Source: a bacterium (GTDB taxonomy: Bacteria > Latescibacterota > Latescibacteria > Latescibacterales > Latescibacteraceae). From it: 64,000 bases of DNA. The notes under the pieces are model-generated. The model searched no databases, was not told the origin of the DNA, and saw only the letters and a list, made by a program, of their open reading frames with translations. Numbering within the stretch: the first letter of the stretch is position 1; each line of letters opens with the position of its first letter. The stretch lies in contig JAJFUH010000038.1 in assembly GCA_021372535.1 (NCBI GenBank), forward strand, positions 12,719 to 76,718. The letters are read 5' to 3'. This document shows, in pieces, positions 570 through 59,878 of the stretch. A program made the position numbers and the translations under genes.

Positions 570-2765
570 ATGGCATCATCCGGTCAGACATACCTTTCAC
601 GCCGTCATTTTATGCGGAACGCGGGAATTGCCGCAGGAACAGCTTTCGCCGCCGGTATCAGGCCCGTCTACAACGCATCAGCCGAGGAAACCGGACATTC
701 CGCGGGCTGGTTTGACACTATGTACCGGCAGTTTCACATCGATGCACATTTCGGAGGCTTCAGAGAGATATACAGGAATTTCGATGCCGAAGCGACCGCT
801 CAGATGTATGAAGAAGCCGGAATACAGATGGTCAGCTACTTCTCGAAATGCTGGGCGGGATATTCGTACTATCCCACGAAAATCGGCGTCGTGCATCCCG
901 GGCTTGACAGGGATTTCACCGGGGAATTGACCGCCGCGCTGAAAAAAAGGGGAATACGGCGAATCCTGTATTTCATGCTCGGTATGGAGCGCCGTCACCA
1001 GTACGAGCACCCCGAGTGGATCCGTAACACCGATTCAAAGAAGACGGTTGTCGAAAAAAGCGCAATCCCCGAATCCGCCATGATGTGCTTCAATTCTCCC
1101 TATGTCGATGAAATCGGTATACCCCAGATGAAGGAAATTATCGCGCTCTACGACATCGACGGATTTTTTGTGGACATTGTCATGCAGCAGTATCTCCAGG
1201 ACAACTGCTGGTGCAAATACTGCCGCGAATATTTCGCCAATGAGGTTGGGGGCGCGATGCCGTCCGGTGACAGCGATCCGAAAGCGTTCGCCTATCGCAA
1301 ATGGGCGAACCGTCACATGGAAGCGCACATGGAAAAGGTCCAGCGCGCCCTTGCCGAAGTCAAGCCCGATATTGAAATCATCAATAATTACGCATGGATG
1401 ATGCGGTATCCGGTAACCCCGCCTCGGTATGTCCACCATATAACATGGGACACTCCTGTACCGAAAGTCGGTCTTTATTCATGGAATTTTTCCCTCGAAG
1501 CCCGGTATGTCTCCACACTCCCGGATATTACCTGGAGCTGCATGAACACCCGCGGAAATACCTGGGGAGAATACTCGCTCCGCGAGCCCGAGGCGTTCAT
1601 GAGCGAATGCGCCATTCTTCTCGCCGCCTGCGGAAGAACCTATCTCTCCGATATCCCTTACCCGCACGGCAACCCCGATCCGGCGGTCATGGAAGTGTTC
1701 GGCGCTGTCAACAGGCGCACCCGCGAGCTCGAACCCTATGTGAAGAACTGCATGCCGGTCACCGATACAGCGGTGCTTCATTCGCCCGACTCGGTCTGGT
1801 CAAAAATGCCCATGGCGCCTACACCGGCATGGATTCCCAGTCCGGCATACTACCCTGTGTGCGGCGCCCACAAGGCGCTAATCGATGGGCATATCCAGAT
1901 GGGAATCCTCAACAGCGGAGGCTTATGTGACAGTCTGAGCCTTTACCGGGCGCTTGTACTACCCGACCAGCGCATCCTGAGCGACCGTGAATGCGAAACG
2001 ATACGGGCCTTCGTAAAGAACGGCGGGGCGCTCCTTGCAACCGGTGAGACAGGAACGAGAGATACGGACAACAAATCCCTCAAAAACTGCGCGCTCGCCG
2101 ATGTACTCGGTGTGGATTACCTGGGCACATCCGATACGGCGAACTGTTACCTCCGGACAAAAACCGGAATCGACAGTCACGGCATTCCGGCAATGGATAT
2201 ACAGGTCATGGGCCCGTATGGCCGGGTTAAAACCACGACCGCGAAGACACTGATCGAACTGGTTCCGCCGTTCGAGGGAATCAAAAATGGCACACCGCCG
2301 CCCGCTCTTTCACCGGAAGGCCCCGGGGTGACGGTGAACATGTATGGAAAAGGCAGGGCTGTCTACTGCGCCGCGAAACTGTTCGACTCATACTACCGTG
2401 AAAGCACACCGGTGCAGCGGAAGCTCGGCCTCTGGATGCTCGAACAGGTGTACCCGCCCGAAGCTCGCACCATTGTTCTCGAAAACACCCCTGTCAACGT
2501 CGAGGTTTTCTATAACCGCCGGGGGAAGGAACTGTTCGTCCACCTCGTCAACTACTCCGGCGACAAGCGCGAGGTCGGTACCCCGCAGGTACAGGATTTC
2601 GCCGTCGTGCATGGTATTCGTATCAGGCTGCAGCTTGCCCGGAAACCGGCGGGAGTCACAACCGTTCCCGGCGGGAAAACCATACCGTCCGCCTATTCGG
2701 ACGGCTGGCTGACCTTCACCGCGGAGCCGCTCGCGATCCACGAGGTGTACAGGATAGAGACGTAA
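570..2765 (+). CDS. TAT-exported glycoside-hydrolase-like protein with a beta-galactosidase (GH42) trimerisation-like middle domain
   Basis: GGAGG at 561-565 precedes the ATG at 570. The N-terminus SRRHFMRNAGIAAGTAFAAG is a twin-arginine signal. LVLPDQRILSDRECETIRAFVKNGGALLATGETG matches the GH42 middle-domain pattern. The track ORF 342-2765 is shortened to the start supported by the ribosome-binding site. Confidence 0.55.
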   Translation: MASSGQTYLSRRHFMRNAGIAAGTAFAAGIRPVYNASAEETGHSAGWFDTMYRQFHIDAHFGGFREIYRNFDAEATAQMYEEAGIQMVSYFSKCWAGYSYYPTKIGVVHPGLDRDFTGELTAALKKRGIRRILYFMLGMERRHQYEHPEWIRNTDSKKTVVEKSAIPESAMMCFNSPYVDEIGIPQMKEIIALYDIDGFFVDIVMQQYLQDNCWCKYCREYFANEVGGAMPSGDSDPKAFAYRKWANRHMEAHMEKVQRALAEVKPDIEIINNYAWMMRYPVTPPRYVHHITWDTPVPKVGLYSWNFSLEARYVSTLPDITWSCMNTRGNTWGEYSLREPEAFMSECAILLAACGRTYLSDIPYPHGNPDPAVMEVFGAVNRRTRELEPYVKNCMPVTDTAVLHSPDSVWSKMPMAPTPAWIPSPAYYPVCGAHKALIDGHIQMGILNSGGLCDSLSLYRALVLPDQRILSDRECETIRAFVKNGGALLATGETGTRDTDNKSLKNCALADVLGVDYLGTSDTANCYLRTKTGIDSHGIPAMDIQVMGPYGRVKTTTAKTLIELVPPFEGIKNGTPPPALSPEGPGVTVNMYGKGRAVYCAAKLFDSYYRESTPVQRKLGLWMLEQVYPPEARTIVLENTPVNVEVFYNRRGKELFVHLVNYSGDKREVGTPQVQDFAVVHGIRIRLQLARKPAGVTTVPGGKTIPSAYSDGWLTFTAEPLAIHEVYRIET

Positions 2766-2879
2766 TACCGCTATTTTTCAGGAAGAAGGAAAAACCGTAA
2801 GCCGCATGCGTGTGAACAATCCGGGTAACAACGATTGCTGTGGATGCCGTCTGAAAACGGAGACCCTGCTCCGGAGATG

Positions 2880-3335
2880 TCACAGGTCTTTACGCATGAT
2901 TATGCGTGTCTCCCCGGGCCCGAAATAATCATCCACGGTCTCCGTCTCACGGAAACCGAGGGCGCGATAACATGCCCGTGCATCTGTGTTTCCGGGTGCA
3001 ACGGTCAGAAACACTTCATCCGCTCCTTTGGAGGACAATACGTCGATCGCATCGAGCATGAGTCCCGTCGCAATACCCATGCGGCGGTATTCATTTTTCA
3101 CGGCGAGCGAAAGTATCCAGCACGCTCCGTTTTCCGGCTTCAAAGCGCCGAGAACATACCCGGCGATGGTTCCCGTATCGTTTACGGCGATGCGGAGCAG
3201 ATTGCCGAACACATCAAGCGCCTGACGGAAAAAAAACAGTGGATAGCCATGAACCCCGAACACTTCCTGTTCCAAAGAAAATACATCCGCTAAATCACCC
3301 ACGGCAGCTGTCCGTATGGTTATATGAGAATCCAA
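2880..3335 (-). CDS. GNAT family N-acetyltransferase (RimI-like)
   Basis: The segment ...LAVKNEYRRMGIATGLMLDAIDVL...VFLTVAPGNTDARACYRALGF carries the GNAT acetyl-CoA-binding motif R-x-x-G-x-A. Confidence 0.75.
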   Translation of the reverse strand: MDSHITIRTAAVGDLADVFSLEQEVFGVHGYPLFFFRQALDVFGNLLRIAVNDTGTIAGYVLGALKPENGACWILSLAVKNEYRRMGIATGLMLDAIDVLSSKGADEVFLTVAPGNTDARACYRALGFRETETVDDYFGPGETRIIMRKDL

Positions 3336-3365
3336 GGATGGCCTTTCGTTTTAAAAAAAATTTGG

Positions 3366-3556
3366 TTATTCAATTAGTGCATAAAACTTACAGATGAGAT
3401 GTTTTTTTCATGTTAACGTGTCATTCCCGTGAAAACGGGAATCCATCACCTGATGCTCATGACAGAGCGAAGTTAATACTGGATTCCCAATTCACTTCGT
3501 TCTTGGGAATGACAATACTTGGGAAATACATTAGTGATTATGAGCTTATTGAATAA
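3366..3556. repeat. MITE-like interspersed element, copy 1 (TIR TTATTCAATWAG; internal GTCATTCCCG/CGGGAATCC and GGATTCCCAA/TTGGGAATGAC hairpins)
   Basis: It is near-identical to 29978-30197. The terminal inverted repeats are GGTTATTCAATTAG at the left end and GCTTATTGAATAAAC at the right end. Four copies of the 8-mer GGGAAT/ATTCCC form nested stems. Confidence 0.7.
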
Positions 3557-3717
3557 ACAAAAAAGAGAAAAAACCAAGCTTTTCAGAAAATATGCAAAAC
3601 CGGAAATGAAAACAACACCATTGTACCATAAACCTTCCACAAAAAACGCCGCTGCATCTTCTGTTTTACAGAATGCACAGCGGAGCTCAATGAAAAAGTA
3701 CAACATTTTACGGTGTA

Positions 3718-5187
3718 TCAAGGCTTGATTGTTGTAATCTCCGTCCAGCTGCCGATGTTTGAACCGCCTTCGAGTTCGGTATCGTTGACATTGACGCGGT
3801 TGACATTCATTCTTGTACCGTCCTCGCTGTTATAGCTGTAACCGGACTGGTGGATCACATAATGCTTACCGTCCACCTCGCCGAGATACGTCGATATATG
3901 GCCGCCGTCACCGACAAAGCATATTCCGGGCTCGCATCCCTTGAGAAACTCGTATTTTTTCTCTTTCGGAGTCGAGCGGGGGAACATGACGACATGGTCT
4001 GAAGCATGCAGCTCGTGGGTTGTCCATCGGCCGGTATAAATACCGCACGTTCTGAGGACAACACGAACCATCCCGCAGCAGTCTCGTTCGTTGTATGAAT
4101 CCGCCCAGCCGTAGGGACGGTAGAGCAGGGTGAAAAGGGTATTGATGACATTACGCTGGGTGAAAGGCTGGTAGCCGACACTGACCCGCGCATCGGGTTT
4201 CACCCATCCGGCAGCCATGCCGAACGAGCCATCCGGCTTGCGGTACGGATAGCTTACCTCGTAACCGTCGGCGGTTTTCCTGGTGAGCCTGACTTTTGCG
4301 CCCATGTAAAAATCCTCGATAAACACATCGAAGTTTTTGTCGGCATAAATCGGCACCTTGTGGCAGGTAGCGACGATAAAATCCGTGCTGTTGATGTAGT
4401 CGCCGATTTCCTTCGGAGAGCCGAAAGCCACATTGACCGCGGGTATCCAGCCGAAGCAGATTTCGCTCCGCACGTAATACCAGTCATGATCCTTCGACAC
4501 ATGGAGAACCGCAACCGGCTGGCCGTAATCAATCATTCCCGACTGGAAACTATCGAGCCAGCCGCCCGGACCGCCGCTTGCCGGCAGGTTGGTGGGCATC
4601 ACTCTGTCGAGCGTATGCTTCACGAGAATTCCATACCGCGGGGTAATGATCTTTGCGGGAATCGAAGACACATTGGTCATGTCGATGAGCTCATTTTTCA
4701 TGTCCTCGTCGTACTTCATGTTTCTTCGATCGTAGAGGTTACGGTTATTGAACCAGTTGTTCGAGCGCTCGATACGAGCGCGGAGGCTGTCGGCGGGAAA
4801 AGAAGTGATCGAGAGCGGATCCTCGACATGGTACATGATTCCGATGAGGTCCTTATCGTCGAGTACCTGCTGAATCGAATAAGGATTCCCGAAAGCATCG
4901 GTGAATTCTGAACCGCGCGTGCTGTTCTTTTTATTGAGCTCCCGTATCTGTGCCGGGGTCAATATGATCTTGTCGGGATCCTTGATACGGGAAATCCAGA
5001 AATCGGCCGACTGCATCTCTGCAGTCGATCCGGGAACGACTTTCGGAGCGGTAAGCGCCTGTCTACGCTCGCCCTGACGTTCACCTTGACGTTCACCACG
5101 GGGCGCGTTTGCCTGGCCCTGTGCAACGGAAACAATCATGGCGAATAATGCAAAGCATACGCTCATACTCTTCAGCACTTTACTCAT
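3718..5187 (-). CDS. Secreted NlpC/P60 family cell-wall hydrolase-like protein (paralog of 31813-33282)
   Basis: It has a signal peptide (MSKVLKSMSVCFALFAMIVSVAQG) and a GERQGERQGERRQ tandem repeat. The C-terminus carries a DCCGMV...GGHISTYLG...VIHQSG Cys/His/His NlpC/P60-type triad. GGGAGA precedes the ATG. Confidence 0.6.
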   Translation of the reverse strand: MSKVLKSMSVCFALFAMIVSVAQGQANAPRGERQGERQGERRQALTAPKVVPGSTAEMQSADFWISRIKDPDKIILTPAQIRELNKKNSTRGSEFTDAFGNPYSIQQVLDDKDLIGIMYHVEDPLSITSFPADSLRARIERSNNWFNNRNLYDRRNMKYDEDMKNELIDMTNVSSIPAKIITPRYGILVKHTLDRVMPTNLPASGGPGGWLDSFQSGMIDYGQPVAVLHVSKDHDWYYVRSEICFGWIPAVNVAFGSPKEIGDYINSTDFIVATCHKVPIYADKNFDVFIEDFYMGAKVRLTRKTADGYEVSYPYRKPDGSFGMAAGWVKPDARVSVGYQPFTQRNVINTLFTLLYRPYGWADSYNERDCCGMVRVVLRTCGIYTGRWTTHELHASDHVVMFPRSTPKEKKYEFLKGCEPGICFVGDGGHISTYLGEVDGKHYVIHQSGYSYNSEDGTRMNVNRVNVNDTELEGGSNIGSWTEITTIKP

Positions 5188-5656
5188 GAATTCTTCTCCC
5201 TCAGTACTTTTTTACACTTATAGTTTATAGGTGAATAGTTCTCCAAATCGCCTGATATGTGAACCACCTTCCGGTCCCGATATCATTGAGGCTTAAACGA
5301 CCGACTCCGAATTCAGTTCCCGCTTTGCAAAAAGACAAATAAATCCCCATTCTGCAGAAAGCAGTTTGTATGAATGTACATATGTATATATTTAATAAAA
5401 TAATTTACCCGCTATTATAATTAAAAACAGTGCCGGAAACAATCGAATAAATGGAGCGACAAGCACAGTACAGGTAATCTCAATCCCGATTATACCTGAG
5501 TTTTATAGGCCTCGGGAGGGTGACCTGCCGTATAAACAGCATATGCCTGTACGACACCGCATCAGGGATGTATTGCACTGGCAGACGAAAGATGGTATAT
5601 TATAACCGGTTGAAATTCTCGACAGTTAGTTTTCATGAATACCGTTTGAAAGTACT

Positions 5657-6349
5657 ATGAGATATCTGACGCTGCTCTTAAGTTTAATCCTTGTTCTCGG
5701 AACTGCCGGCTGTATTTTCGACAGCGATAAAAAGGACGACATCAAGGGGGAGTATCTCGATTCATACTTCCCGCTCAATCCGAAGCTGACAAGGAACTAC
5801 ACGGTAACGACCTTTCTGGATTCGCTCGAATCCCGCAGTACCATGATCCGGTTTTTTTCCGGGATAATGAACTTCCATGGTACTCCCTACTATATTCTTC
5901 AATCGACCGACAGCGACAAGTATTCGTATTACCGTATCGACAACGGTATTCTCTATCGTTTTTACTTTGAAAACGAAAAATATTTCGTTCCCTTCGCTCA
6001 CGAGGAGCCTCTTCTCGACTTTACGAAAAATCCCGGTGAATCCTGGCTTGTCGTCGACAACACCATTCCGGAAACAAACGGAGAAACCACCTATACTCTC
6101 ACCGCAACGTATGTCGGGCTTGAAACGGTTCAGGTACCGGCCGGAACATTCGAAGGGTGTACGCGGTATGATAATTACGAAACATTTGTCAATGTATACA
6201 GCACCGGGGAAGGCGAGAACACGCAGAGAATGGAGATGAGATACAGCACATGGTATGCGAAGAGCGTCGGACTTGTCAAGGCGACATCCGAGGGGGATTT
6301 TTTCGGAAATTATCTGATCGAGCTCGAGACCTATACCCTGAAGAAATAA
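5657..6349 (+). CDS. Lipoprotein of a repeated uncharacterised domain family (paralog of 11813-12544 and of both halves of 40744-42432)
   Basis: The lipobox is LGTAGC followed by IFDSD. It shares the pattern YFPL...W.Y...G..VpAGTFegC...W.A..vGLVK with three other domains in the window. Confidence 0.6.
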   Translation: MRYLTLLLSLILVLGTAGCIFDSDKKDDIKGEYLDSYFPLNPKLTRNYTVTTFLDSLESRSTMIRFFSGIMNFHGTPYYILQSTDSDKYSYYRIDNGILYRFYFENEKYFVPFAHEEPLLDFTKNPGESWLVVDNTIPETNGETTYTLTATYVGLETVQVPAGTFEGCTRYDNYETFVNVYSTGEGENTQRMEMRYSTWYAKSVGLVKATSEGDFFGNYLIELETYTLKK

Positions 6350-6441
6350 CCATAAGCCTGAAAACCATTCCGCCCATCGAAATCATTCCCTATCCGGTGC
6401 GACTCCGGTGAAGTTCCTGCCGGGAGTGAAAAACTCCGGAG

Positions 6442-7263
6442 TTATTGTTCGAACATATTCGCCATTTTGAGACGGTTCTGTTTCGACAGGTTGATGAATT
6501 TCAATCCCGCCGTATTATCGGGTCTCACATGCAGCATGATTGACTCCGCCACCCAGTTGCTGAGGGGCGGCTGGTCGATTTTCAGGAGCACTCTGTATGT
6601 ATCCTCGGGATTGAGCTTTTCATCGAGGTTTATATTTGCAAGAAAGGCGCCGGTGCTGCTGATGTTTTTTACCTGTGCAGAGCCGTTGATGCAATGGATG
6701 GGATCGGAAGTACTGTAAACCTGGATCTGCGCCGCGATATCCACATCGAGGCGGGGCCATCGCCGTTTCAGAGCGGGAATCTGATTGGACGAAAATAAAA
6801 GTGTGTTCAGTTTTCTCGTCATGTAGGTATTGTCTTTATTGGATTTGTAAAAATAATCGTCAATTTCCCCTTCAGGAGGCGGCGCGCTCTTTTCGGACTC
6901 CATGGCATACAGTATCCTGGTATCTTTCAATTCATCACGTCTCTTGATGCACTTTATCACTTCCGATGAAGGAATGTCGGGGAATTTTTCATCGATGATC
7001 GCGAGATGGGGAAGAATCCTGGAACAGTCGACGAGGGTATCGCATCCTGTCTGCGCAATGGTGATGTTGATCCGATGATCGTTCTCGAAGAGTTCCGCCA
7101 CAAGTTTACACAGGGCATCGTCCGGAGACCCTATCAGTATCTCCCATTTTGTTTCCTGGGAGGATGAAAAATTCATGAGGAGGTCCGCATCCTCATCGGT
7201 GATCAGCCTCGTTATATCATTGAATCCGAACTGTTCGGACGCGTTGTCTTGTTTCTGGTCCAT
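6442..7263 (-). CDS. Receiver(REC)-like plus PilZ domain protein (predicted c-di-GMP receptor)
   Basis: The C-terminus has the PilZ motifs RRWPR (RxxxR) and NISSTGAF (D/NxSxGG). The N-terminus is CheY-like, with LIGSPDD...LAIIDEKFPD. Confidence 0.6.
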   Translation of the reverse strand: MDQKQDNASEQFGFNDITRLITDEDADLLMNFSSSQETKWEILIGSPDDALCKLVAELFENDHRINITIAQTGCDTLVDCSRILPHLAIIDEKFPDIPSSEVIKCIKRRDELKDTRILYAMESEKSAPPPEGEIDDYFYKSNKDNTYMTRKLNTLLFSSNQIPALKRRWPRLDVDIAAQIQVYSTSDPIHCINGSAQVKNISSTGAFLANINLDEKLNPEDTYRVLLKIDQPPLSNWVAESIMLHVRPDNTAGLKFINLSKQNRLKMANMFEQ

Positions 7264-7745
7264 CGTAAGTTCTCCATATCATGAGGAACAGGTTTTTTCA
7301 AGTGAAACAGGAGTTGTTATATAATACGACAACAATTCCATTCTGACAAGAGCGCTTATGGTCTTTATCAGACATTGACAATACAGGGTATAAATCACTT
7401 CTATCATTTATAAAATTTTTTAATGGAACAATTTACCGGGCATTGTCACTATGAACAATAAAAATCACTGCCCGCCTCGATTCTTTGCACCATTTGTCCC
7501 TGCCATACAACCATCCTGTCTTCAGGATTCTTTTGGAATCACTAATTATGTCTTGACATTATATCAACCTCATATAATAATATAATCAATAATGTTACGC
7601 ATTAACAATAAAATATGTGGTTTTTTTTCTTATAATGTGCATTATTTAACAGATATAAAGCATAGCGAAAAACACTGTCTGAGCCGTCAAGGGTCAGAAC
7701 TGATCCCCGATTAATGATTCGGGGACAACAACCTGGCCCGCTCTA

Positions 7746-7794
7746 TTCACATATTTTAATTGAACACAGATTTTTGCGGATCGGGTGGATTTTC
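7746..7794 (+). promoter_or_regulatory. Conserved intergenic motif, copy A (TTCACAT...GAACACAGATTTTTGCGGAT...GGATTTTC)
   Basis: It shares about 45 nt of alignable sequence with 12554-12600 and 31699-31750. It lies about 200 bp upstream of the first HD-GYP gene. Confidence 0.45.
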
Positions 7795-7991
7795 AAGAAT
7801 TGTTAATACCTTTTAAGATGTGAACGATTAATAATTACTAATGATAGTAAAAATAATCTATTATGTGTGTTTGTGTTTTAGTGGTAATTTTTTTTATGAA
7901 TTAAACAACCTGACAACATTTTTCGCCGTCGAGCATGCAAGAAGATATCTTTTCTTCGATCTCTTGATGAGCACCGGAATCCGGAAAAACC

Positions 7992-8972
7992 ATGAATGCC
8001 GTTCCTGATCAGGAAACGTATGTACCGATATATCTCGGCACCATGAGAGCCAACACATTACAGCTATTCAGTATTTATATCAAGATTGCTGATAATTATG
8101 TGCTCTATCATACCGGGGGTGAACGACTCAACGAGGAGGTGCTCAATAAACTCATCTATAATAAAATAACGTTTGTGTATATCAGGAAAAAAGATACCGG
8201 TGCTTATAATGAGTACCTTGCCGAAAATCTTTCCTTGATTCTTCGGGATCCAGTTACATCTGTCGAAGAAAAAGCCGAAATAGCTAATTACTCCATTAGA
8301 ACCATCGCCCATTATATTTTCGAACAGCCTGACCCCGCCAATCTGAAACTCTTCAGGCAGTCCGTTGTTTCGGCAACGGATTTTATCCTTAATTATGAAG
8401 AAGCAATATATGCACTCATCCGTATGACATCATACAATTTCACCATTCCGAATCATTCCATTAATGTTGGTATTTTTGCCACGGGACTCGCAAAAACAAT
8501 TTTACGCAATGATCCGGCGCACAAAATACAGGAAATTGCAATGGGATTTTTCCTCCATGATATCGGCAAGAGCCTGATCCCCGAGAGTATCATGAACAAA
8601 CCGGGACCCCTGACCCACAGCGAATGGAAAACCATGAAACTCCATCCGTCAGAGGGATTCAAGCTTCTTACGAACAACAATATCCGCAGCGAGGAAATCA
8701 AAATAATCGTTACCCAGCACCATGAGCGTAACAGCGGAAAAGGGTATCCCCGGGGTTTGAAAGGGAATCAGATCCACATGTACAGCAAGATATGCCTGAT
8801 CGCAGATATTTTTGAGGCGCTCACATCCCACCGGCCTTATAAAAAACGTCACGACAGCTCGTTCAACGCTCTTCTCACCATGAAAAATGAAATGCTCAAG
8901 GAATTCGATCCGTTCTTTTTTCAGCAATTCGTTCTCCTTTTCCGAAATACCTTCGGGACATCCCATATATAA
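7992..8972 (+). CDS. HD-GYP domain c-di-GMP phosphodiesterase, paralog 1 of 3, with an uncharacterised roughly 150-aa N-terminal domain (possibly DUF3391-like)
   Basis: Motifs present are HSINVG, FFLHDIGK, HPSEG, HHERNSGKGYP and IADIFEALTSHRPYKK. Confidence 0.8.
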   Translation: MNAVPDQETYVPIYLGTMRANTLQLFSIYIKIADNYVLYHTGGERLNEEVLNKLIYNKITFVYIRKKDTGAYNEYLAENLSLILRDPVTSVEEKAEIANYSIRTIAHYIFEQPDPANLKLFRQSVVSATDFILNYEEAIYALIRMTSYNFTIPNHSINVGIFATGLAKTILRNDPAHKIQEIAMGFFLHDIGKSLIPESIMNKPGPLTHSEWKTMKLHPSEGFKLLTNNNIRSEEIKIIVTQHHERNSGKGYPRGLKGNQIHMYSKICLIADIFEALTSHRPYKKRHDSSFNALLTMKNEMLKEFDPFFFQQFVLLFRNTFGTSHI

Positions 8973-9373
8973 AAAAATACCATACGTAATACATGAATCG
9001 GATTCATGCTCTGCATATAAAAGCCCGGAATTCCCGTTCATCCGGTATGGTTGCCCTGTTTGATCATACCTTATTATAAGAAATTCCGTGAGGATACTGA
9101 GTATTTCCCACGGCACAACCATGAGAAGTATTTTAAAAAAATAGGGGGTTGCTAAAAAATAACTTTCCTCTTGCTCAAGATTTTTATATCCTTCCTACTA
9201 CGGATCAGGTTTTGACAACACCTGCATTATCTGATATGGCTTTTGATTAATCGTATTACAATGAAACACTCCGTTCCTGACAAAGGTTATTAATAATAGT
9301 TACCTGTACCAGGAATGTTTATGGTTTGTACTGAAAAATATAATACGGTACTTTTTCGAGGTTATAGACTGAA

Positions 9374-10372
9374 ATGGATCAGACACCACCTGCAGAATTC
9401 ATTCCCATTTATCTCCGAACTATGCGTGTCAACACATTGCAGTCTTTCAGTATATACATTAAAGTTGTCGATAATTATGTACTCTATCACAGCGGAGGCG
9501 AAAAATTAACCGAGGGTGTTCTCAACAAGCTTATTGAAAATAAAATAGTTTATGTCTATATCCGTAAGCAGGATACGGAGGCTTATTTACAGTATCTTTC
9601 GGAAAATCTTTCAAAAACGCTCAAAGACCCCGATGTTTCTCTCAAGGAAAAATCCGAAATCGCCAATGTTTCTATACGCAGCATCGCCTTTACCTTTTTT
9701 GATAAACCCAGCGAAGAAACCCTTAAACAGTACATGACATCCGTCGCAACATTGGCCGAATATATCCTTACATATGAAGAAGCAATTTATACCCTCATAC
9801 GCCTGACTTCGAACAAATACGGTATTTCAACCCATTCTATCAATGTCGGTATGTATGCGACAGGCCTCGCGAAAAATCTCCTGGCCGACGATCCCAGTCA
9901 TAATATCAAGGAAATTTCGGCGGGATTTTTTCTCCATGATGTCGGTAAAAGTCTCATACCCGGACAGATTCTCTATAAAAACGGTCCGCTGACTCACAGC
10001 GAATGGAAAACCATGAAACGTCACCCCACCGAAGGATTCAAACTCCTCAATCAGTTCAATCTCAACAGTAATGAAATAAAAATCATCACAACACAGCACC
10101 ATGAAAGGAAAAACGGTAAAGGTTATCCCATCGGCATCAAAGGTGACGGTATTCACATATACAGTAAGATATGCAGTATCGCCGATTCGTTCGAAGCCCT
10201 TACTGCGACCAGACCATATAAAAAAAGGAACGAAAGCTCCTTTAACGCTCTCCTGATATTGAAGAATGAAATGATGAATGAATTCGATCCGTTCTTTTTC
10301 CAGCAGTTTGTCCTTCTGTTCCGCGAAGCACTCGAGCAGTCGAAACCTAAAACTGTCGTACAGTTATCGTAA
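9374..10372 (+). CDS. HD-GYP domain c-di-GMP phosphodiesterase, paralog 2 of 3
   Basis: Motifs present are HSINVG, FFLHDVGK, HHERKNGKGYP and IADSFEALTATRPYKK. It is colinear with paralogs 1 and 3. Confidence 0.8.
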   Translation: MDQTPPAEFIPIYLRTMRVNTLQSFSIYIKVVDNYVLYHSGGEKLTEGVLNKLIENKIVYVYIRKQDTEAYLQYLSENLSKTLKDPDVSLKEKSEIANVSIRSIAFTFFDKPSEETLKQYMTSVATLAEYILTYEEAIYTLIRLTSNKYGISTHSINVGMYATGLAKNLLADDPSHNIKEISAGFFLHDVGKSLIPGQILYKNGPLTHSEWKTMKRHPTEGFKLLNQFNLNSNEIKIITTQHHERKNGKGYPIGIKGDGIHIYSKICSIADSFEALTATRPYKKRNESSFNALLILKNEMMNEFDPFFFQQFVLLFREALEQSKPKTVVQLS

Positions 10373-10737
10373 TGATTGCCTGATACTTTTCCTTGAATAT
10401 CCTCTGTTCCTGACAGATATCATTATCTGGCTTCCGATAATCATTCCTGCTGTTCCCATGCCCTCCGTGTCTCAGTAGTGAAAATATTTGAACTTCCATG
10501 CTTTTTATAAGATATAACCGGATAAGTATATGTGTTTGATGAAATAATCGAGTGTCCGGCTGTTCCGGTTTTTGTATGTCCTTTTAATCGTTTTAAATTA
10601 CAGCCAAATACATAAAACATTTACTGATTTTTGATTTAAGATTGTTTTTAAACTTGACTTTAGTAAATTCAGGTAGCATAGTAGCATGATAGTGAGTATT
10701 TCAACAAGAAATACGTTTATTCGGGAGACAGAGTTTT

Positions 10738-11712
10738 ATGTTTCAGACTATGGATCAGGTTTATTATGAGGTACCACTTAATTCGATAAGGATCGATTCA
10801 GAGCCGTATTTCAATATTTATAATAAGATAGAGGATGAATATAAGTTCTTTCATTCTAAGGGAGAACCGTTTACCGATGAAAATCTCGACGGGTTTCTCA
10901 GCAAAGGAATCATGTCGGTTTTTATCCATGCGAACGATTCCAAATACTACAGCCAATATCTGGCCGATAATCTCACTGACATTCTCGGCAATCCGAACAT
11001 GACTGTCAATGAAAAGGCGCAATTTTCCCATGCGGGAATCACCGGTGTTGCCCGGATTCTTTTCGAACAGCCAAAGCTTGAAATAATACGGTTATTCAAA
11101 TCCTCGATATCATCCGTGACTGATTTTGTACTCGAAGATGAAGATGCCATCAGCGAGCTTATTCGCCTGACATCATACAGTTTCAGTCTGTCGACACATT
11201 CTGTCAATGTCGGTATCTTTGCGCTGGGTCTGGCAAAAATGCTTCTGGGTAATGACCCGTTCCATAATATGCGTGAAATCGCCGCCGGATTTTTCCTCCA
11301 TGATATCGGTAAAAGCATGATACCTCAGTCAGTTCTGCATAAAGCCGGCCCTCTGACTCATAACGAGTGGAGAAGTCTCAAGCTGCATCCGACGGAAGGT
11401 TATAAACTCCTGAATCAATTTAAAATCTGCAATAATGACATAAAAACAATCGTCATGCAGCACCATGAACGTAACAACGGGAGAGGGTACCCGTACGGTT
11501 TACATGAAGATGAAATCCACCTGTACAGTAAAATCTGCAGTATTGCCGATGTTTTTGAAGCGCTCACATCTCATCGTCCTTACAAAAAGGAGAGTAAAAG
11601 TTCGTTTTCCGCATTACTTATCCTGAGAAAGGAAATGGCAAAAGAGTTCGACCCGCATATGTTCCAGCAGTTTGTTCTCCTGTTCCGTAACGCATACGAT
11701 ATTCAATCATGA
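10738..11712 (+). CDS. HD-GYP domain c-di-GMP phosphodiesterase, paralog 3 of 3
   Basis: Motifs present are HSVNVG, FFLHDIGK, HHERNNGRGYP and IADVFEALTSHRPYKK. GGGAGA lies 8 nt upstream of the ATG. Confidence 0.8.
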   Translation: MFQTMDQVYYEVPLNSIRIDSEPYFNIYNKIEDEYKFFHSKGEPFTDENLDGFLSKGIMSVFIHANDSKYYSQYLADNLTDILGNPNMTVNEKAQFSHAGITGVARILFEQPKLEIIRLFKSSISSVTDFVLEDEDAISELIRLTSYSFSLSTHSVNVGIFALGLAKMLLGNDPFHNMREIAAGFFLHDIGKSMIPQSVLHKAGPLTHNEWRSLKLHPTEGYKLLNQFKICNNDIKTIVMQHHERNNGRGYPYGLHEDEIHLYSKICSIADVFEALTSHRPYKKESKSSFSALLILRKEMAKEFDPHMFQQFVLLFRNAYDIQS

Positions 11713-11812: not shown

Positions 11813-12544
11813 ATGAAACGGTTTTCATTTATCGCTCCGGCGCTTCTTGTACTTTCTCTGGCAGGTTGTATTTTCGATCATGATGACAGCGGAGACAGGC
11901 TTCGGGCCGAACGGTATTTTCCCCTGAAGGAAAACACTTCATGGACATACCGGGATACGTACGGAAATGGCCTTGAAGGAACCAGCACCCTGGCTATAAC
12001 CGGGAAAAAAACACAAGAAGGTCATGAATACGCTGTTTTTTGTGTAGAAGGGACAGAGACCGAAAACTATTTCCGTATCGAGAATAACGTTGTCTACGTC
12101 TACATGGGCAATACCGCAGCGCTGCCTCTGCCGGAAAATTCACAGCGCCGGCGAGCGGCGATGCCTGCCTTCGTAATGAGTGCCGGAGAGCACGAATGGC
12201 CTTATTTCGATTTCTCTGCGAAAATCGGGGATACGTGGGAAATTTACCGGGATAAGCTCAGTCTCGTTGATGCGGTAACGGATGTTGTGATTACGGGAAA
12301 ACTGACAACCGGCGCTGTTGAAGTCGAAAGCGGGTCATACGGGGACTGCGCGATATTCGCCATAACCACGGTAAGGGAAACCGTCTATTCCGATAACCGT
12401 CCCGCCAGGAATGAGAAAAACACGGTGACATGGTGGCTCGCCCGCGATATAGGTCTGGTTAAACAGACCCAGGAAATTCAGAGCGGCGACAATCCGCCGG
12501 AAATCATCGAATCCGAGCTCCTGTATTACTCCGTTCCCTTTTAG
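11813..12544 (+). CDS. Lipoprotein of the repeated uncharacterised domain family (paralog of 5657-6349)
   Basis: The lipobox is LSLAGC followed by IFDHD. It carries the same YFPL...W.Y...G..VesGsYgdC...WWLARDIGLVK pattern. Confidence 0.6.
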   Translation: MKRFSFIAPALLVLSLAGCIFDHDDSGDRLRAERYFPLKENTSWTYRDTYGNGLEGTSTLAITGKKTQEGHEYAVFCVEGTETENYFRIENNVVYVYMGNTAALPLPENSQRRRAAMPAFVMSAGEHEWPYFDFSAKIGDTWEIYRDKLSLVDAVTDVVITGKLTTGAVEVESGSYGDCAIFAITTVRETVYSDNRPARNEKNTVTWWLARDIGLVKQTQEIQSGDNPPEIIESELLYYSVPF

Positions 12545-12600: not shown

Positions 12601-12753
12601 ATACCGTTGTATGCATGTCGACTTTTTTAATTGTAGCTATATATAGTATTAATAATATATTATGTCTCTTTCTGCCTTTATGGTTAAGCATATTTCACGA
12701 ATAGTCAGTCTTTGGTGACGGCTGAGAATCCTGTCCATTTACCGCTCAGCTCC

Positions 12754-14085
12754 TCATTCCAGCCTGAACAGATTTCGGGCGTTTCCGCTGAGAATCCGTG
12801 CCGCGACGTCCACAGCCTCGGTTTCGGTCATGAGCCCCATGGTCACCTTCTCCGCAAGAACATGGGCGATATTTTCCCGCGCAATCTCGAGAGAACCCCA
12901 GACCGTTTCCGGTACGAGCGCATCACCGCCAAATCCGTGGATTTTATTTACCGGAACCAGGTCGAGCATATGCGAAAGCCCCTCACGGGCGCCTTCCGGG
13001 ACAATGATATGTACCCATGTCAGGTCGAGCGACACATTGGGGAACTGTTTGGCAAGGCATGCCGTTTCCTTCATCCACGGGTAGCCCGAATGAAGGAGAT
13101 GGAACCGTACTTTCGGGTATTTGACAAAAAGATTCGTAAGCAGGGAAGCCCGCGAATTTACAACTTCGTTGCCCATGTGGGTCTGGATGCCGGTGTGAAC
13201 AATCACCGGGAAACCATGCTCCTCGGCGCGGTCGAGGATACGGTGCAGGACGAAATTCTCGAAGGGGCGGGCTTCTGCGAACGAGAGAGTTTCTTCGAGA
13301 TGCGGGAGCCGCCGCAGCGTAAAGATACGCTTCATCACCCGCTCGGCCTCGTCACGGGTGCTGTCTTCGTAGTGCAGGTCCCGCAGGTAGGCATCGGCAA
13401 TCTTGAGCGCGATCCGTTTGTCCTTTTTCCAGCGGTCGAACTGTTCGTCCATGACATCGAGGAGATGATCGATGTTACGGATTGTCCTGCCGAACATTTT
13501 TTCCAGATTGGCAAGTCCTCCCGGCAGGTACATATAGGAAAAATGCCTGAACCGCGAGACAAACCGCAGGAGCTCGCGGTCCATCCGCTCGTATGCCCCC
13601 GGAAGCGCCATGGTGTCGATATCGTTCACAATGTGCGTGATTCCGCAGATTTCTCCGAACAGTTTCCGATAGACGCCCGGTTTCATGAGCGCAGCGAGTT
13701 TTTCCGTAACTTCATGGTATGTGCCGTCGGTCAGGTCGTCGATTCCGAGCAGTTTTTTCATTGAATACCGCGCGGCGCGGCAGTATCCGGTATAGCGGGA
13801 ATGTTCCCAGTACGGCTTTATATACTTCCATTTCTCATCGAGCGAAAGCGCTCGCCCGTTGATACGCAGCACCGATCCGAGTGTCTCCCTGTATTCCAGA
13901 AGATTGGGAATTTCCATACCCGCGCTCATGAGATCATCGATGGTATACCACGATGTGAATCTCCCGAAATCGGCGTTTTTTTCAAGATAGTCCTCTTCCG
14001 GATACATGAGGTGTTCATGCATGTCTACAACCGCCATGGAATCGATTTCGGTTTTCAAACGTTGGTAGAGCTCCCTGCCTGGCAT
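12754..14085 (-). CDS. Amidohydrolase-superfamily (amidohydrolase-2-like) metal-dependent hydrolase
   Basis: The N-terminus has VVDMHEHL, an HxH metal-binding motif, followed by HTGIQTH and LLHSGYPW. AAGGAG lies 8 nt upstream of the ATG. Confidence 0.6.
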   Translation of the reverse strand: MPGRELYQRLKTEIDSMAVVDMHEHLMYPEEDYLEKNADFGRFTSWYTIDDLMSAGMEIPNLLEYRETLGSVLRINGRALSLDEKWKYIKPYWEHSRYTGYCRAARYSMKKLLGIDDLTDGTYHEVTEKLAALMKPGVYRKLFGEICGITHIVNDIDTMALPGAYERMDRELLRFVSRFRHFSYMYLPGGLANLEKMFGRTIRNIDHLLDVMDEQFDRWKKDKRIALKIADAYLRDLHYEDSTRDEAERVMKRIFTLRRLPHLEETLSFAEARPFENFVLHRILDRAEEHGFPVIVHTGIQTHMGNEVVNSRASLLTNLFVKYPKVRFHLLHSGYPWMKETACLAKQFPNVSLDLTWVHIIVPEGAREGLSHMLDLVPVNKIHGFGGDALVPETVWGSLEIARENIAHVLAEKVTMGLMTETEAVDVAARILSGNARNLFRLE

Positions 14086-39608: not shown

Positions 39609-40595
39609 ATGGACAGCAACAGCACACGTCGCTCCTTTATCGTGAATTCAACGGTTGGCCTGACAGGCTTGGGGTATATATCATCAGGCATGACCCCGAC
39701 CGATGCACATGCCGCCGCCGCACAAAAAACACGTATGAAACCCGACCGTAAGCTGACCGAAAAGATCGAAAATCTCATCAAGCCGTTTCGCGGCGATGTG
39801 GGAGTCTATGTTCACCACCTGCCGAGCGGGAGAACGGCGGAGCACCGCGCCGATGAGCTCTTTCCCACAGCCAGCCTCATTAAGGTTTCGATCATGCTCG
39901 CCCTTTTCGACCGCATGAACCGCGGAGAACTCTCGTTCCATCAGGTGCTTGAATATGACGGGACGTATACATACAAAGGTATGAACGAGGATATCCTCGC
40001 CTGTTTCAAGATTGGCGAAAAAATCAGGCTCAGCAAGCTCATCATGCTCATGATCACCATCAGCGACAATTCCGCCTCCATCTGGTGCCAGGAGCTCGCC
40101 GGTTCGGGAATGAATATCAACCGTGTGCTCGAAGAAAACGGCTTCGGATCGCTACGGATCAATGCCCGCACACCGGGAAGAGAGGACGCCTACGAGCAGT
40201 ACGGCTGGGGACAGACATCACCGCGCGAGCTGTGTGATCTCTTCGTCAGAATCCGCAGGAACGATATCATAAGCCCCTCTGCGTGTGAGGCGATGTACCG
40301 AATACTCACCCGCATTTACTGGAACGGCGAGGCGCTCTCGCAGATACCGCCGTATGTGCAGGCCGCATCGAAACAGGGGGCGTTGAACCGGTCGCGATCC
40401 GAGGTTGTGCTCGTCAATGCGCCATCCGGTGATTATGTGTTCTGTGTCATCACCAAGAACCAGGAAGACCAGAGCTGGGAAGAGACCAACGAGGGTTTTG
40501 TGCTCTTGCGGGATATATCGAGGCTCCTCTGGCGGCATTTCGAGCCTGATTACGGCTGGGAACCTGCACCCCCGGTCGATGTGCTCAACCGGTGA
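39609..40595 (+). CDS. TAT-exported class-A beta-lactamase-fold serine hydrolase
   Basis: The twin-arginine signal is STRRSFIVNSTVGLTGL. The catalytic motifs are SLIK (S-x-x-K) at FPTASLIKVSIMLAL and SDN (ISDNSAS). Confidence 0.6.
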   Translation: MDSNSTRRSFIVNSTVGLTGLGYISSGMTPTDAHAAAAQKTRMKPDRKLTEKIENLIKPFRGDVGVYVHHLPSGRTAEHRADELFPTASLIKVSIMLALFDRMNRGELSFHQVLEYDGTYTYKGMNEDILACFKIGEKIRLSKLIMLMITISDNSASIWCQELAGSGMNINRVLEENGFGSLRINARTPGREDAYEQYGWGQTSPRELCDLFVRIRRNDIISPSACEAMYRILTRIYWNGEALSQIPPYVQAASKQGALNRSRSEVVLVNAPSGDYVFCVITKNQEDQSWEETNEGFVLLRDISRLLWRHFEPDYGWEPAPPVDVLNR

Positions 40596-40743: not shown

Positions 40744-42432
40744 TTAAGGAATTGTATAGCCCGTTACCTCGTCAACAGTAATATCGGAGACCACCATATC
40801 GATTGTCCGGGTCGATTCTTTCTTGATCATTCCTACACCGGCAGCGAACCATCGCTGGGAAGCAAGCACCGTCGTTTCGGTTATGTAGCTGTTGGTGATG
40901 AGCGAGTAGTGCTTTTCGGTTTTCGTGAATGTCAGCAGGATTTTAGCGCAATCGGAGAATGTTCCCGCCGCGACCGTCACCGCTTCTTTTCCGAGGTATG
41001 TTCCCTTACAGGTGATAAGCGTGTTCTCGTCATACTGGTATGAAAACACATCCCAGGATGCCTGCGCCGAAACGCCGAATTTATAGAAGGGGAAAGTACC
41101 TCCTTCGTCCGCGGCGTTTGCAGCTGCTTTAAACCAGATATATGAATCGTCATCGTAATGGAAATAGACAACATTTTCGGAAGTTTCATACCTGACGAAC
41201 GGATCGTTCCAGTCGTTTGAAATGTCCATGAGGACGAAATCTTTACCGTCAAAGGGGCTCGAGATCGACATCGTCACATGGTACGTATCATCGTATAAGA
41301 GGTCGCCGTCGGCATTCTTGATGACAGACTTCCAGTTCCATGTAGCGTCCTTTGTAGTCGGGAAATAGGTACCGCCGGTAGTTCCGCCGCCACCACCGCT
41401 TTCGGTTTTTCCGACTATTGCCGTTGTCGCTGAGAAATCATCTCCATTGACTGTAACGGTTATATATGCGGGTGTGAACGTATAACCCGATTTTGAAGGA
41501 GTGAGGGTATAGGTTCCGTTGGGGACTTCGATTATCAGATATTCGCCATCGGAATCGGTATATGTTTCGAGCTTCTCGCCGGAAACGGTAATGCTTACCA
41601 GGACGTTCTGGAGCGGTTTGCCGGTGGAATCCGTGATATATCCCGAGACATTGTATGTTCCGCTTCCGCCGCCGCCGGTATTGTCGCCTCCGCTCGGACC
41701 GCCGGGAATATTGTAATAAATCACCTCGTCGGTAGAGGTATAATCATAGGAAAGTTTGCCGTCTTCATAATCCGTGTATTTATCAATGGTTTTGACGGGA
41801 CCTATGCCCTGAGCGAAATAGGTGGTGCTGATCTCGTCATAGCTCCCTTTTCCCCACTCTGATGTGTATTCTGTCTTCATGGTACTTTCGAATACAGCGC
41901 AGTTCTTAAACGTTCCGGAAGGAACGGTTACGTCTTTGAGGCCGATATACTTTCCGGTCCAGTTTATGGTTGCAGAATATCCCTCTTCGGACATGGTATC
42001 GGAAAAAATTGTCCATGTCTGGCCGACAGATTTGTTGAAATTATATAACGGGATTTCGGTACTCCCGAGATTGAACTGTTGGGCATGAGCTTTTTCGAGG
42101 TATTCACCCTCCGCGTATGAATACATGATGTTATTTGACAGGCGGAACAGATTGTCTGAACTATCTTCATTCATGACCCAGTATGTTTTCCCGTCCCGTG
42201 TCGTTGTGCCGGTCAATACATCGGTATAGGTGTAGGAATAACCTGATTCATCGGTGCTTTGCCATTTCCATGTGGCGTTTTTCACCAGCGGAATGTAGTT
42301 TTCCGCTTTGAGCGACCCACCTGTTCCGCCGCCGTTATCGACCTCGTCATCGTTTTTGCTGCTGTCACTGGTCAGACACCCGACGGCAAAGACCATGGAA
42401 ACGATCAAGAGCAGTGCAAGGATCTTTTTCAC
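40744..42432 (-). CDS. Lipoprotein with two copies of the repeated uncharacterised domain, separated by a carboxypeptidase-regulatory-like beta-sandwich domain
   Basis: The lipobox is VFAVGC. Repeat 1 is NYIPLVKNATWKWQ...GTFKNCAVF...YFAQGIGPVK. The middle segment is NVSGYITDSTGKPLQNVLVSITVSG. Repeat 2 is TYFPTTKDATWNWK...GTFSDCAKI...WFAAGVGMIK. Confidence 0.6.
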   Translation of the reverse strand: MKKILALLLIVSMVFAVGCLTSDSSKNDDEVDNGGGTGGSLKAENYIPLVKNATWKWQSTDESGYSYTYTDVLTGTTTRDGKTYWVMNEDSSDNLFRLSNNIMYSYAEGEYLEKAHAQQFNLGSTEIPLYNFNKSVGQTWTIFSDTMSEEGYSATINWTGKYIGLKDVTVPSGTFKNCAVFESTMKTEYTSEWGKGSYDEISTTYFAQGIGPVKTIDKYTDYEDGKLSYDYTSTDEVIYYNIPGGPSGGDNTGGGGSGTYNVSGYITDSTGKPLQNVLVSITVSGEKLETYTDSDGEYLIIEVPNGTYTLTPSKSGYTFTPAYITVTVNGDDFSATTAIVGKTESGGGGGTTGGTYFPTTKDATWNWKSVIKNADGDLLYDDTYHVTMSISSPFDGKDFVLMDISNDWNDPFVRYETSENVVYFHYDDDSYIWFKAAANAADEGGTFPFYKFGVSAQASWDVFSYQYDENTLITCKGTYLGKEAVTVAAGTFSDCAKILLTFTKTEKHYSLITNSYITETTVLASQRWFAAGVGMIKKESTRTIDMVVSDITVDEVTGYTIP

Positions 42433-53865: not shown

Positions 53866-54513
53866 TTAAATATACACGGGCTGTTCGACACCTTCATACC
53901 TCGGCAGCGGGACATTCCACTGGAAAAGCTCATCGCTGGGGGAATGCCCCTTGAGCTTCCGTTGCAGTCTCTTACGGGCTCTGCTTACCCGCGATTTAAT
54001 CGTACCGACCTGGAGACCGGTAATTTCTGAAATCTGTTGATAACTCATACCGTCGATATCGCGGAGAATGAGAATTTCTTTATATTTCATATTTAAGGTA
54101 TCGATGGCTTCCTGTACCTTCTCATCGAGAATTCTGAAAGCGGCTATCTGGTCAGGTTTCATATGGGGATCGGGGATATCGTATTTTACCTGATTGTCAT
54201 TATCCGCATCGATGACGAGGTATTTCCACCGTTTTCTTCGCCTGAGCTCGCTTTTGGCAAGGTTTCCCGCAATAGTGAAAAGCCATGTTGAAAAATGCGC
54301 GATAGCCCTGTACTCACCGCACTTTGTGAATACCCGTAAAAACGTCTCCTGCACAATGTCTTCCGAAGTCTGGTAATCATTGGTGAAACGGAATACGAAA
54401 TTAAGAAGGCGGTCTTTGTACCGGTTGACCAGTATATCGAAATGTTCGGCATTTCCGTCTCTGACACTGTACAGAATGTCTTTATCCGAAAACAGTGCAG
54501 TATCGTTTTTCAT
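53866..54513 (-). CDS. ECF-type RNA polymerase sigma factor (sigma-70 region 2 / region 4)
   Basis: Region 2 is DIVQETFLRVF. Region 4 has the HTH SYQQISEITGLQVGTIKSRVSRARKRL. Confidence 0.8.
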   Translation of the reverse strand: MKNDTALFSDKDILYSVRDGNAEHFDILVNRYKDRLLNFVFRFTNDYQTSEDIVQETFLRVFTKCGEYRAIAHFSTWLFTIAGNLAKSELRRRKRWKYLVIDADNDNQVKYDIPDPHMKPDQIAAFRILDEKVQEAIDTLNMKYKEILILRDIDGMSYQQISEITGLQVGTIKSRVSRARKRLQRKLKGHSPSDELFQWNVPLPRYEGVEQPVYI

Positions 54514-54603
54514 AGTACGCTCATTTTTTAATTGTTTAAAATGTGTATCTATTAGTAAAACAAGGATAATATGAAATAGTGATGCCTTATCGCTTACCGC
54601 CGG

Positions 54604-54879
54604 TTATTTCACTCTCAGCGGATAGGACGGTGTCGGGATAAGCGGGCAGTAGTATGTATAGTCGCCGCTCTTCAGTTCCACCTGCACGGACACTTTTTCT
54701 CCGGTTTTTATCATGCGAGTTATCGGTTTCTCACCTTCCCTCATCAAAACAAATCCCGCATCCTTGTTCGATTTATTTTCCACTTCAAACTGATAAGTCC
54801 CGGGATTGATGTCATAAATATCCCCGATTGTTTCAAAATATCCGGGATGCTCAATTACTCTGATCGTCCTGTTGTGCAT
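54604..54879 (-). CDS. Small hypothetical protein (91 aa) upstream of the ECF sigma gene
   Basis: The ORF has a beta-rich composition (YTYYCPLIPTPSYPL) and no recognisable family. Confidence 0.3.
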   Translation of the reverse strand: MHNRTIRVIEHPGYFETIGDIYDINPGTYQFEVENKSNKDAGFVLMREGEKPITRMIKTGEKVSVQVELKSGDYTYYCPLIPTPSYPLRVK

Positions 54880-55036
54880 GGTTTCCGCCTTACTGTATTG
54901 GACAACGTCTGCATCAGTCCCGCCGATGTTCCATGATCCTGTCTGTTACCGATAATTATCGTGATCCGCTGTTATTCGCTCCGAAATCATCAGTACTCTC
55001 TGCATGTTTTGCGGTGTGTTAACCCGCGTGCGCAGT

Positions 55037-55393
55037 TCAATCGTTCCCTATGGCATTTATAGCATTCATGAATATGTTGATTTCAAATGGTTTATGAAAA
55101 AAGGCATATGCTTTTTCCCTGATTTCTTTCATGGCCGTCGTTTCAAAGGGATATCCTGTCAGTATTATCACTTTTACCTGAGGGTCGTGCTCTTTGACAG
55201 TCCTGAACACATCGAGACCGGTCATCTCGGGCATGGAGAAATCCGATACGACGACATCGAAATTCCCCCTTTTATATGCCTCAACCGCTTCACGAGGATC
55301 AGAAAACGCCTGGTGAGGAAGCCCCAGAAGATCAAACGCGAAACTCATGATTTCAAGCGAACGGATATCATCGTCGATCACAAGAATGTTCAT
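55037..55393 (-). CDS. Single-domain CheY-like response regulator (receiver only)
   Basis: The segment MNILVIDDDIRSLEI...VVVSDFSMPEMTGLDV...KVIILTGY shows the receiver fold. I set the start at the internal Met of the track ORF. Confidence 0.7.
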   Translation of the reverse strand: MNILVIDDDIRSLEIMSFAFDLLGLPHQAFSDPREAVEAYKRGNFDVVVSDFSMPEMTGLDVFRTVKEHDPQVKVIILTGYPFETTAMKEIREKAYAFFHKPFEINIFMNAINAIGND

Positions 55394-55679
55394 TGGTAAC
55401 TCCGTCCTTTGAATCGAATAATGAAGCTTTATCCGGGATGCTTTATATTCATCATCTCCCGAACCTTTAAAGGGCCTTATGGCTGCTTGTATACTGTAAA
55501 TTCGTGCCAATGTGCCCGTATCGTAAGTACAAACCGTGCAAATAAATTATTTTCAAGATGATAGATTATATTGTGAAAAAAGTATTTGGTGGGCGATATA
55601 ATGCAGTGGCTCATTCCAGCCGGTTATAATGGGCCGATGGTTCATTTTAACCGGTGACGGGTGCGGTAATGCAGAAGAT

Positions 55680-59739: not shown

Positions 59740-59878
59740 GGTATTCCCCGGGTATCAATATCCGGTAATCGTATGAATTGTACCGGCCTTTTATAACATC
59801 GTAAAACGATTTCTACAAAAGTCTTATGGTAAATATAATGATAATAAAATAATTGTCAGGTAATATTTTTTAATTGGA

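Follow-up and report, generated by a model that had tools for sequence, protein, structure and literature searches.

The four copies of a β-rich domain found in three predicted lipoproteins of a Latescibacterota bacterium very probably belong to a divergent and largely metagenomic branch within the Pfam family DUF3108_like (PF21347). The explanation that best accounts for the evidence as a whole is that these domains are DUF3108-like, outer-membrane and probably surface-exposed modules with a non-catalytic binding role, a reading to which we assign a probability of roughly 0.55. All three genes lie within the 64,000-nucleotide stretch of DNA that was analysed, hereafter called the window, where they were initially annotated as encoding an uncharacterised lipoprotein domain present four times and possibly linked in function to neighbouring HD-GYP genes.

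Three lipoprotein genes and four domain copies

The genes and their domains are arranged in the window as follows, with the two shorter genes named lipoA and lipoB and the third protein referred to by its length.

5657-6349, + strand: lipoA, an ORF for a predicted lipoprotein of 230 aa with one DUF3108-like β-barrel domain at residues ~33-228
11813-12544, + strand: lipoB, an ORF for a predicted lipoprotein of 243 aa with one copy of the DUF3108-like domain
40744-42432, - strand: the ORF for the predicted 562-aa lipoprotein, with a GTG start and two DUF3108-like copies
41689-42315, - strand: N-terminal DUF3108-like domain of the 562-aa protein, residues ~40-248, located by HMM and BLASTP
41407-41661, - strand: CarboxypepD_reg (transthyretin-like) β-sandwich spacer of the 562-aa protein, residues ~258-342
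40747-41370, - strand: C-terminal DUF3108-like domain of the 562-aa protein, residues ~355-562, located by HMM and BLASTP

Pairwise BLASTP bears out a shared domain in these four segments of three ORFs, with E-values that run from 2e-22 (lipoB against the N-terminal domain of the 562-aa protein) to 3e-05 (lipoB against its C-terminal domain). Between these extremes, lipoA matches lipoB at E 3e-18 with 26% identity, and the N- and C-terminal domains of the 562-aa protein at 2e-17 and 2e-07, respectively, while the two domains of the 562-aa protein match each other at 9e-17. All pairs are far below the E of 0.01 beyond which the initial annotation was prepared to give up the family, and chance similarity among the four copies can be ruled out, as every pairwise E is 3e-05 or lower. 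The motifs that had been picked out by eye are all visible in a four-way alignment, namely Y-[FI]-P close to the beginning of the domain, G-x-W in its central part, and then V-x-x-G-[ST]-[FY]-x-x-C together with W-x-A-x-x-[IV]-G-x-[IV]-K. Only the domain length needs revision, being nearer to 210 aa than to the 190 aa first suggested. Searches of the six-frame ORFs of the window with a four-domain HMM and with an HMM of 64 relatives recovered exactly four copies of the domain, and neither model revealed a fifth.

The 562-aa protein does consist of two copies around a carboxypeptidase-regulatory-like sandwich, as had been proposed. Its middle domain scores 50.4 bits against PF13620 over residues 262-330, above the threshold of 32.3, and 41.9 bits against PF13715, and the AlphaFold model of the protein contains three β-modules at residues 40-248, 258-342 and 355-561. 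Judged from these sequence comparisons, lipoA, lipoB and the 562-aa protein are paralogs of one lipid-anchored all-β barrel family. The sequence of lipoB is identical to MCE5249340.1, which is deposited as 'hypothetical protein [bacterium]'. Downstream of lipoB, a 350-aa ORF at 12712-13764 (+ strand) runs antisense to an Amidohydro_2 gene (12754-14085, - strand), wholly inside it, and is in all likelihood a shadow ORF rather than a gene.

Family placement and predicted fold

Where the initial annotation saw no named family, the domain falls within PF21347. This model scores the 562-aa protein at 34.9 bits (cut-off 27), with the best stretch at residues 481-542, and matches 53 of 64 single-domain relatives at E <= 0.01. 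The score of lipoA, 23.0 bits (E 8e-05), is under the same cut-off of 27, and lipoB alone is matched neither by PF21347 nor by any other Pfam model; PF21347 aligns only to roughly the C-terminal third of the domain. The sister family PF11306 (DUF3108), to which the YmcC fold of 3FZX has been ascribed (PMC4364669), matches 14 of the 64 single-domain relatives and none of the three window proteins, and an NCBIfam scan of the three returned nothing meaningful.

A profile of the 64 relatives, with lipoA and lipoB among them, connects the domain to two crystal structures, 4FVS (E 1.8e-11) and 3FZX (E 1e-07), and its next match has an E of 0.2. These homologous structures were reached only with the 64-member profile; when the PDB was searched by sequence with just the 562-aa protein or with a four-domain profile, both were missed. 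The alignment of the profile to 4FVS and 3FZX passes through the VPAGTF-xC...W[FY]ApnVGlVK motifs, and the C-terminal pair PAGTFxxC ... W[FY]AxxVGxVK is present in all four copies and aligned to its counterpart in both structures. The domain is not a new family and represents a divergent subfamily of one that has already been named and structurally solved.

The two structures are the prototypes of PF21347, BDI_3050 from Parabacteroides distasonis (4FVS, a putative lipoprotein) and BF2203 from Bacteroides fragilis (3FZX, described as a 'YmcC-like fold'). In common with these prototypes, the members of the window branch are exported or lipoprotein barrels of ~200-240 aa that carry a C-terminal V-x-V-P-A-G-T-F-x-x-C followed by W-[FY]-A-x-x-V-G-l-V-K and, in the Pfam-positive relatives P0017, P0023 and P0029, an N-terminal Y-F-P-L-x-x-G-x-x-W-x-Y. 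However, sequence identity of the window branch to 4FVS and 3FZX is just 11-14%, an Asp-rich tether typically stands in front of the domain, and the domain often occurs in tandem or fused to CarboxypepD_reg stalks. Whereas the prototypes come from Bacteroidales, the named close relatives of the window branch are Latescibacterota MAGs.

Although the family now has a name, the description of its function as uncharacterised stands. In the literature on DUF3108, YmcC, PF21347, 3FZX and 4FVS we found no functional study, and DUF3108 is mentioned there only in gene-neighbourhood or proteomics listings that give no function. The initial annotation had agreed to yield to a well-characterised Pfam family with known function; PF21347 is a DUF without one, and the proposal therefore survives on this point.

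An exhaustive HMM search shows how far the family extends, with 1335 cluster representatives at E <= 1e-3, mostly metagenomic and many of them multi-domain, 154 at E <= 1e-10 and 34 at E <= 1e-30. A word-indexed protein search yielded just 31 relatives, among which the close named ones belong to Candidatus Latescibacterota MAGs and the distant ones contain a PF21347 or PF11306 domain; when the 562-aa protein served as the query, the word-indexed search was dominated by CarboxypepD_reg matches. Orthologs of lipoA share 48-91% identity with it, and none above 32% identity was found for lipoB. Across the wider family, the domains fused to the barrel are overwhelmingly CarboxypepD_reg/transthyretin-like repeats and Ig-like domains. 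A Type IX secretion (T9SS) sorting domain (Por_Secre_tail) is present in at least one member, and in some members the barrel is repeated in two to four tandem copies. Together, the fusions, tandem copies and T9SS tag point to a displayed, modular and non-catalytic unit.

The AlphaFold model of lipoA (pLDDT 89.3, pTM 0.80) is a 12-strand antiparallel meander in which no helices follow the signal peptide, and the model of the 562-aa protein has a pLDDT of 75 overall and of about 90 in the N-terminal module. In a Foldseek comparison with the PDB, 3FZX and 4FVS were the best matches of the lipoA model (E 9e-07 to 4e-06, probability 1.00, TM 0.44-0.50), and the separately built 562-aa model again returned 4FVS and 3FZX as its best single-domain matches, with a target TM of 0.50-0.51. 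Over both models the E-values span 9e-07 to 8e-05 with alignments of 225-230 columns, and the TM-scores are moderate, at 0.44-0.51 (0.46-0.51 for the target TM) with an rmsd of 7-9 Å. As modelled, the fold of the whole domain agrees with that of 4FVS and 3FZX. An integral outer-membrane barrel was also considered and rejected, because porin/OmpX fold matches have a probability of 0.35 at most and the proteins carry a lipobox.

The next matches of the lipoA model are LolA from several species, LprG (also in complex with PIM or triacylglyceride), VioE and EPDR1, all of which have the LolA-like superfold. They raise the alternative of a periplasmic orientation, in which the proteins would carry lipids or lipoproteins, or serve in envelope biogenesis, with acyl chains held in the barrel as in LolA, LolB, LprG or RseB. 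LolA, LolB, LprG, RseB and VioE are likewise antiparallel β-sheet barrels of similar size, several of them lipoproteins that bind acyl chains, and the window proteins possess a predicted lipoprotein anchor of their own. However, these fold matches are weak, with E about 1e-2, TM 0.16-0.28 (0.21-0.28 for LolA) and rmsd 12-17 Å, no Pfam or NCBIfam model for LolA, LolB or LprG matches the three proteins, and the lipoA model has no helical plug. The T9SS sorting domains and long sandwich-domain stalks fused to the family point instead to an extracellular location, and three paralogs in 64 kb, together with the huge diversity of the family and its many singleton clusters, are unlike a housekeeping carrier. 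We consider such a carrier unlikely; the resemblance is at most one of working principle and not of membership.

Lipid anchor, acidic tails and a putative binding role

A lipobox Cys ahead of the domain, as initially annotated, is present in all three proteins. Each N terminus comprises one or two basic residues, a hydrophobic stretch and a lipobox that fits the [LVI][ASTVI][GAS]C criterion (TAGC in lipoA, LAGC in lipoB and AVGC in the 562-aa protein), with the Cys at residue 19, and lipidation at Cys19 is predicted from these sequences. A lipobox recurs in 53 of the 64 relatives. The Cys is followed by an Asp-rich tail, which reads IFDSDKKDD in lipoA and IFDHDDSGD in lipoB; in the 562-aa protein the tail is LTSDSSKNDDEVD, with LTSDSSKNDDE following the Cys. 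Among the relatives, positions +2 to +11 from the Cys contain a mean of 3.75 Asp/Glu and 0.7 Lys/Arg, with Asp frequently in unbroken runs, and the same stretch in the small sample of other putative lipoproteins from the window contains 0-1 acidic residues.

Latescibacterota and Bacteroidota belong to the same superphylum. In Bacteroidota, acidic residues located right after the lipidated Cys form an export signal that directs lipoproteins to the cell surface, and the forms tested are K-(D/E)2, SDDDD and CS(D/E)2 (PMC5080379, PMC6222051). The criterion derived from this signal, a minimum of two Asp/Glu around positions +3 to +5 relative to the lipidated Cys, was defined in Bacteroidota and not in the host phylum, and the acidic run of the window proteins starts at +4. 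Surface lipoproteins of Bacteroidota such as SusG, SusD-like proteins, MucG and BtuG resemble the window proteins in their lipobox Cys, in an Asp/Glu run within a few residues of it and in a genomic setting with an abundance of glycoside hydrolase-like and T9SS-tagged genes, but they have an unrelated fold, belong to another phylum and show an acidic run from +3 rather than +4. By this analogy, the three proteins are probably exposed on the surface at the outer membrane, and the Asp-rich tails raise the possibility that lipoprotein surface export of the Bacteroidota type is at work in Latescibacterota. The acidic tether could also be a mere flexible linker and not an export signal.

The mechanism that we favour, which we hold tentatively and at somewhat below even odds, can be put as follows. 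Lipidation at Cys19 would bring the protein to the outer membrane, from where it would probably be flipped to the cell surface under the guidance of the Asp-rich, export-signal-like stretch. The barrel on the surface could then bind or capture, without catalysis, a putative ligand that is hydrophobic or a glycan, and in the 562-aa protein the sandwich spacer would keep two such binding modules apart. Ligand binding is here inferred from the modelled fold.

A different account would make the barrel an enzyme, with an active or metal site built from the Cys of PAGTFxxC or from the HEEP and GEYLDS motifs of the lipoA subfamily. One non-lipobox Cys is shared by at least 90% of relatives and by the sequences of both crystal structures, and VioE, which figures among the weak fold matches, is an enzyme with a LolA fold. 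The two motifs, H115-E116-E117-P118 and G31-E-Y-L-D-S, do not vary among nine lipoA orthologs and form part of the longer subfamily signatures HEEPxLDF (residues 115-122, 5999-6022) and GEYLDS[YF]FPLNP (residues 31-42, 5747-5782); they could mark a catalytic or metal site. However, in the four-way alignment neither motif occurs in lipoB or in either domain of the 562-aa protein. Being confined to the lipoA subfamily, they may therefore mark a subfamily-specific site. The window proteins and their domains match no catalytic family, the fusion partners are structural rather than catalytic, and a lone conserved Cys on a strand is equally compatible with core packing. An enzymatic role is therefore highly improbable in our estimation, and a non-catalytic binding module remains the preferred reading.

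Gene neighbourhood and implications

Two of the domain copies, those of lipoA and lipoB, flank three HD-GYP genes, in agreement with the initial annotation, and the region between them contains the following genes.

6442-7263, - strand: PilZ-domain protein of 273 aa (PF07238, 27.2 bits, cut-off 22.5), convergent with lipoA; not a member of the family
7992-8972, + strand: HD-GYP-type (HD_5) paralog 1 (PF13487, 83-96 bits over the three paralogs); not a member of the family
9374-10372, + strand: HD-GYP-type (HD_5) paralog 2 (PF13487); not a member of the family
10738-11712, + strand: HD-GYP-type (HD_5) paralog 3 (PF13487); not a member of the family

The three HD-GYP paralogs are 50-65% identical to one another and have a single ortholog in locus L001. 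Recent tandem co-duplication of lipoprotein and HD-GYP units was rejected on the basis of these values, given the 26% identity between lipoA and lipoB. The interval 7264-11712 is a low-GC patch, with a GC content of 41-43% in the HD-GYP genes and of 34-36% in the spacers between them, which measure 365-730 bp, against 53-55% in the flanking genes. Further low-GC patches occur in the window at 54001-56000 and 58001-60000, with 44-45% GC against about 51% overall and a strongly negative AT skew.

The arrangement led the initial annotation to suggest a functional link, for example as a surface sensor or ligand-binding module. On this idea the lipoproteins would be extracytoplasmic sensors of, or ligand-binding inputs to, the adjacent c-di-GMP module of PilZ and HD-GYP phosphodiesterases. 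The neighbourhood counts that bear on this idea rest on 10 loci including the window, to which a tight lipoA alignment search added one genome locus and four metagenome loci; L009 is too short to tell, which leaves nine assessable. A convergent PilZ gene (orthologs 41-68% identical by tblastn) adjoins the lipoA ortholog in six of the nine (the window, L001, L002, L007, L008 and L010), and an HD-GYP gene follows beyond PilZ in both loci that are long enough, the window and L001. Neither a PilZ nor an HD-GYP gene lies by the lipoA ortholog in L003, L004 and L006. Since lipoA identity is 49-72% in the PilZ-positive loci and 54-56% in the PilZ-negative ones, the adjacency looks ancestral to the lipoA subfamily and lost in one lineage, and its retention even where the proteins have diverged by about 50% speaks for a selective tie of some kind. 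The position of lipoB, which begins 100 bp beyond the third HD-GYP gene and on the same strand, also fits a sensor role.

Two of the loci in which PilZ is missing have unrelated REC-containing signalling genes in its place, convergent downstream of the lipoA ortholog: a response regulator and a kinase at 4109-5946 of L004, and a hybrid 5TMR-LYT histidine kinase at 4865-10089 of L006. These could be counted in favour of a signalling connection, but the pattern was recognised post hoc and carries little weight. In L006, the lipoA ortholog starts 24 bp after an M23 peptidase-PKD gene.

Several observations count against a direct connection. The PilZ and HD-GYP proteins show no membrane-spanning segment by Kyte-Doolittle analysis (maximum 19-residue mean 0.89-1.22) and, because they have no hydrophobic segment, are expected to be cytoplasmic; since no membrane transducer gene is encoded between the lipoA, PilZ and HD-GYP genes either, an exported lipoprotein would have no evident path to them. 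Furthermore, lipoA and PilZ converge and are thus not co-transcribed, and the combination of co-oriented linkage and a membrane route, by which a c-di-GMP module would be recognised, was not found at these loci. The GC content is mismatched, with 41-43% in the HD-GYP genes against 46.6% in lipoA and 50.5% in lipoB. A conserved neighbourhood is found for lipoA and PilZ, whereas the other paralogs show no such link: lipoB offers no ortholog above the 32% level with which its adjacency could be compared, the gene for the 562-aa protein is 28 kb distant and has a beta-lactamase-family gene as its neighbour, an arrangement that recurs in L005, and distant family members occur in unrelated gene contexts and operons.

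As for the functional link to HD-GYP, the adjacency part of the claim is supported by PilZ and HD-GYP neighbours, while the convergent orientation, the missing membrane segments and the three loci without these genes count against the rest. The PilZ/HD-GYP adjacency is most likely an inherited gene order in one Latescibacterota lineage with no direct signalling tie. We regard a sensor role for the lipoproteins as improbable, and the c-di-GMP link, which is the attraction of the finding, as only weakly supported. Distinctly improbable, too, is a Latescibacterota-specific module of the lipoA subfamily, PilZ and HD-GYP in which the surface barrel would report an external cue to c-di-GMP turnover via some partner, although, if true, such a module would give the DUF3108-like DUF a first function.

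Other gene contexts of the family can be noted in their own right. The neighbour of the 562-aa protein gene is a Beta-lactamase2-family gene at 39609-40595, convergent to it, and the same pairing in L005 (3513-4487, 70% identity) is interrupted by one Por_Secre_tail gene. In L011, a string of genes at 1030-6717 encodes Lactamase_B_2, TENA_THI-4, PqqD, radical-SAM-SPASM and three unknown proteins, and ends with a distant DUF3108_like lipoprotein, P0028, whose start overlaps the preceding stop. This string looks like a peptide-maturation cluster.

Probably surface-exposed binding modules of the outer membrane remain our preferred reading of the four domains. Family placement alone reveals no new mechanism. 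It does, however, place three 'hypothetical' or mis-named proteins, one of which had been annotated only from its carboxypeptidase-regulatory-like spacer domain, in a family with two crystal structures, and there is a reasonable case for ligand screening on one of these small lipoproteins. More broadly, the DUF3108-like barrel emerges as a modular unit that is widespread among environmental bacteria and probably displayed on their surface. If surface export of the Bacteroidota type indeed operates on these proteins in Latescibacterota, this would provide the DUF3108-like DUF with its first function.
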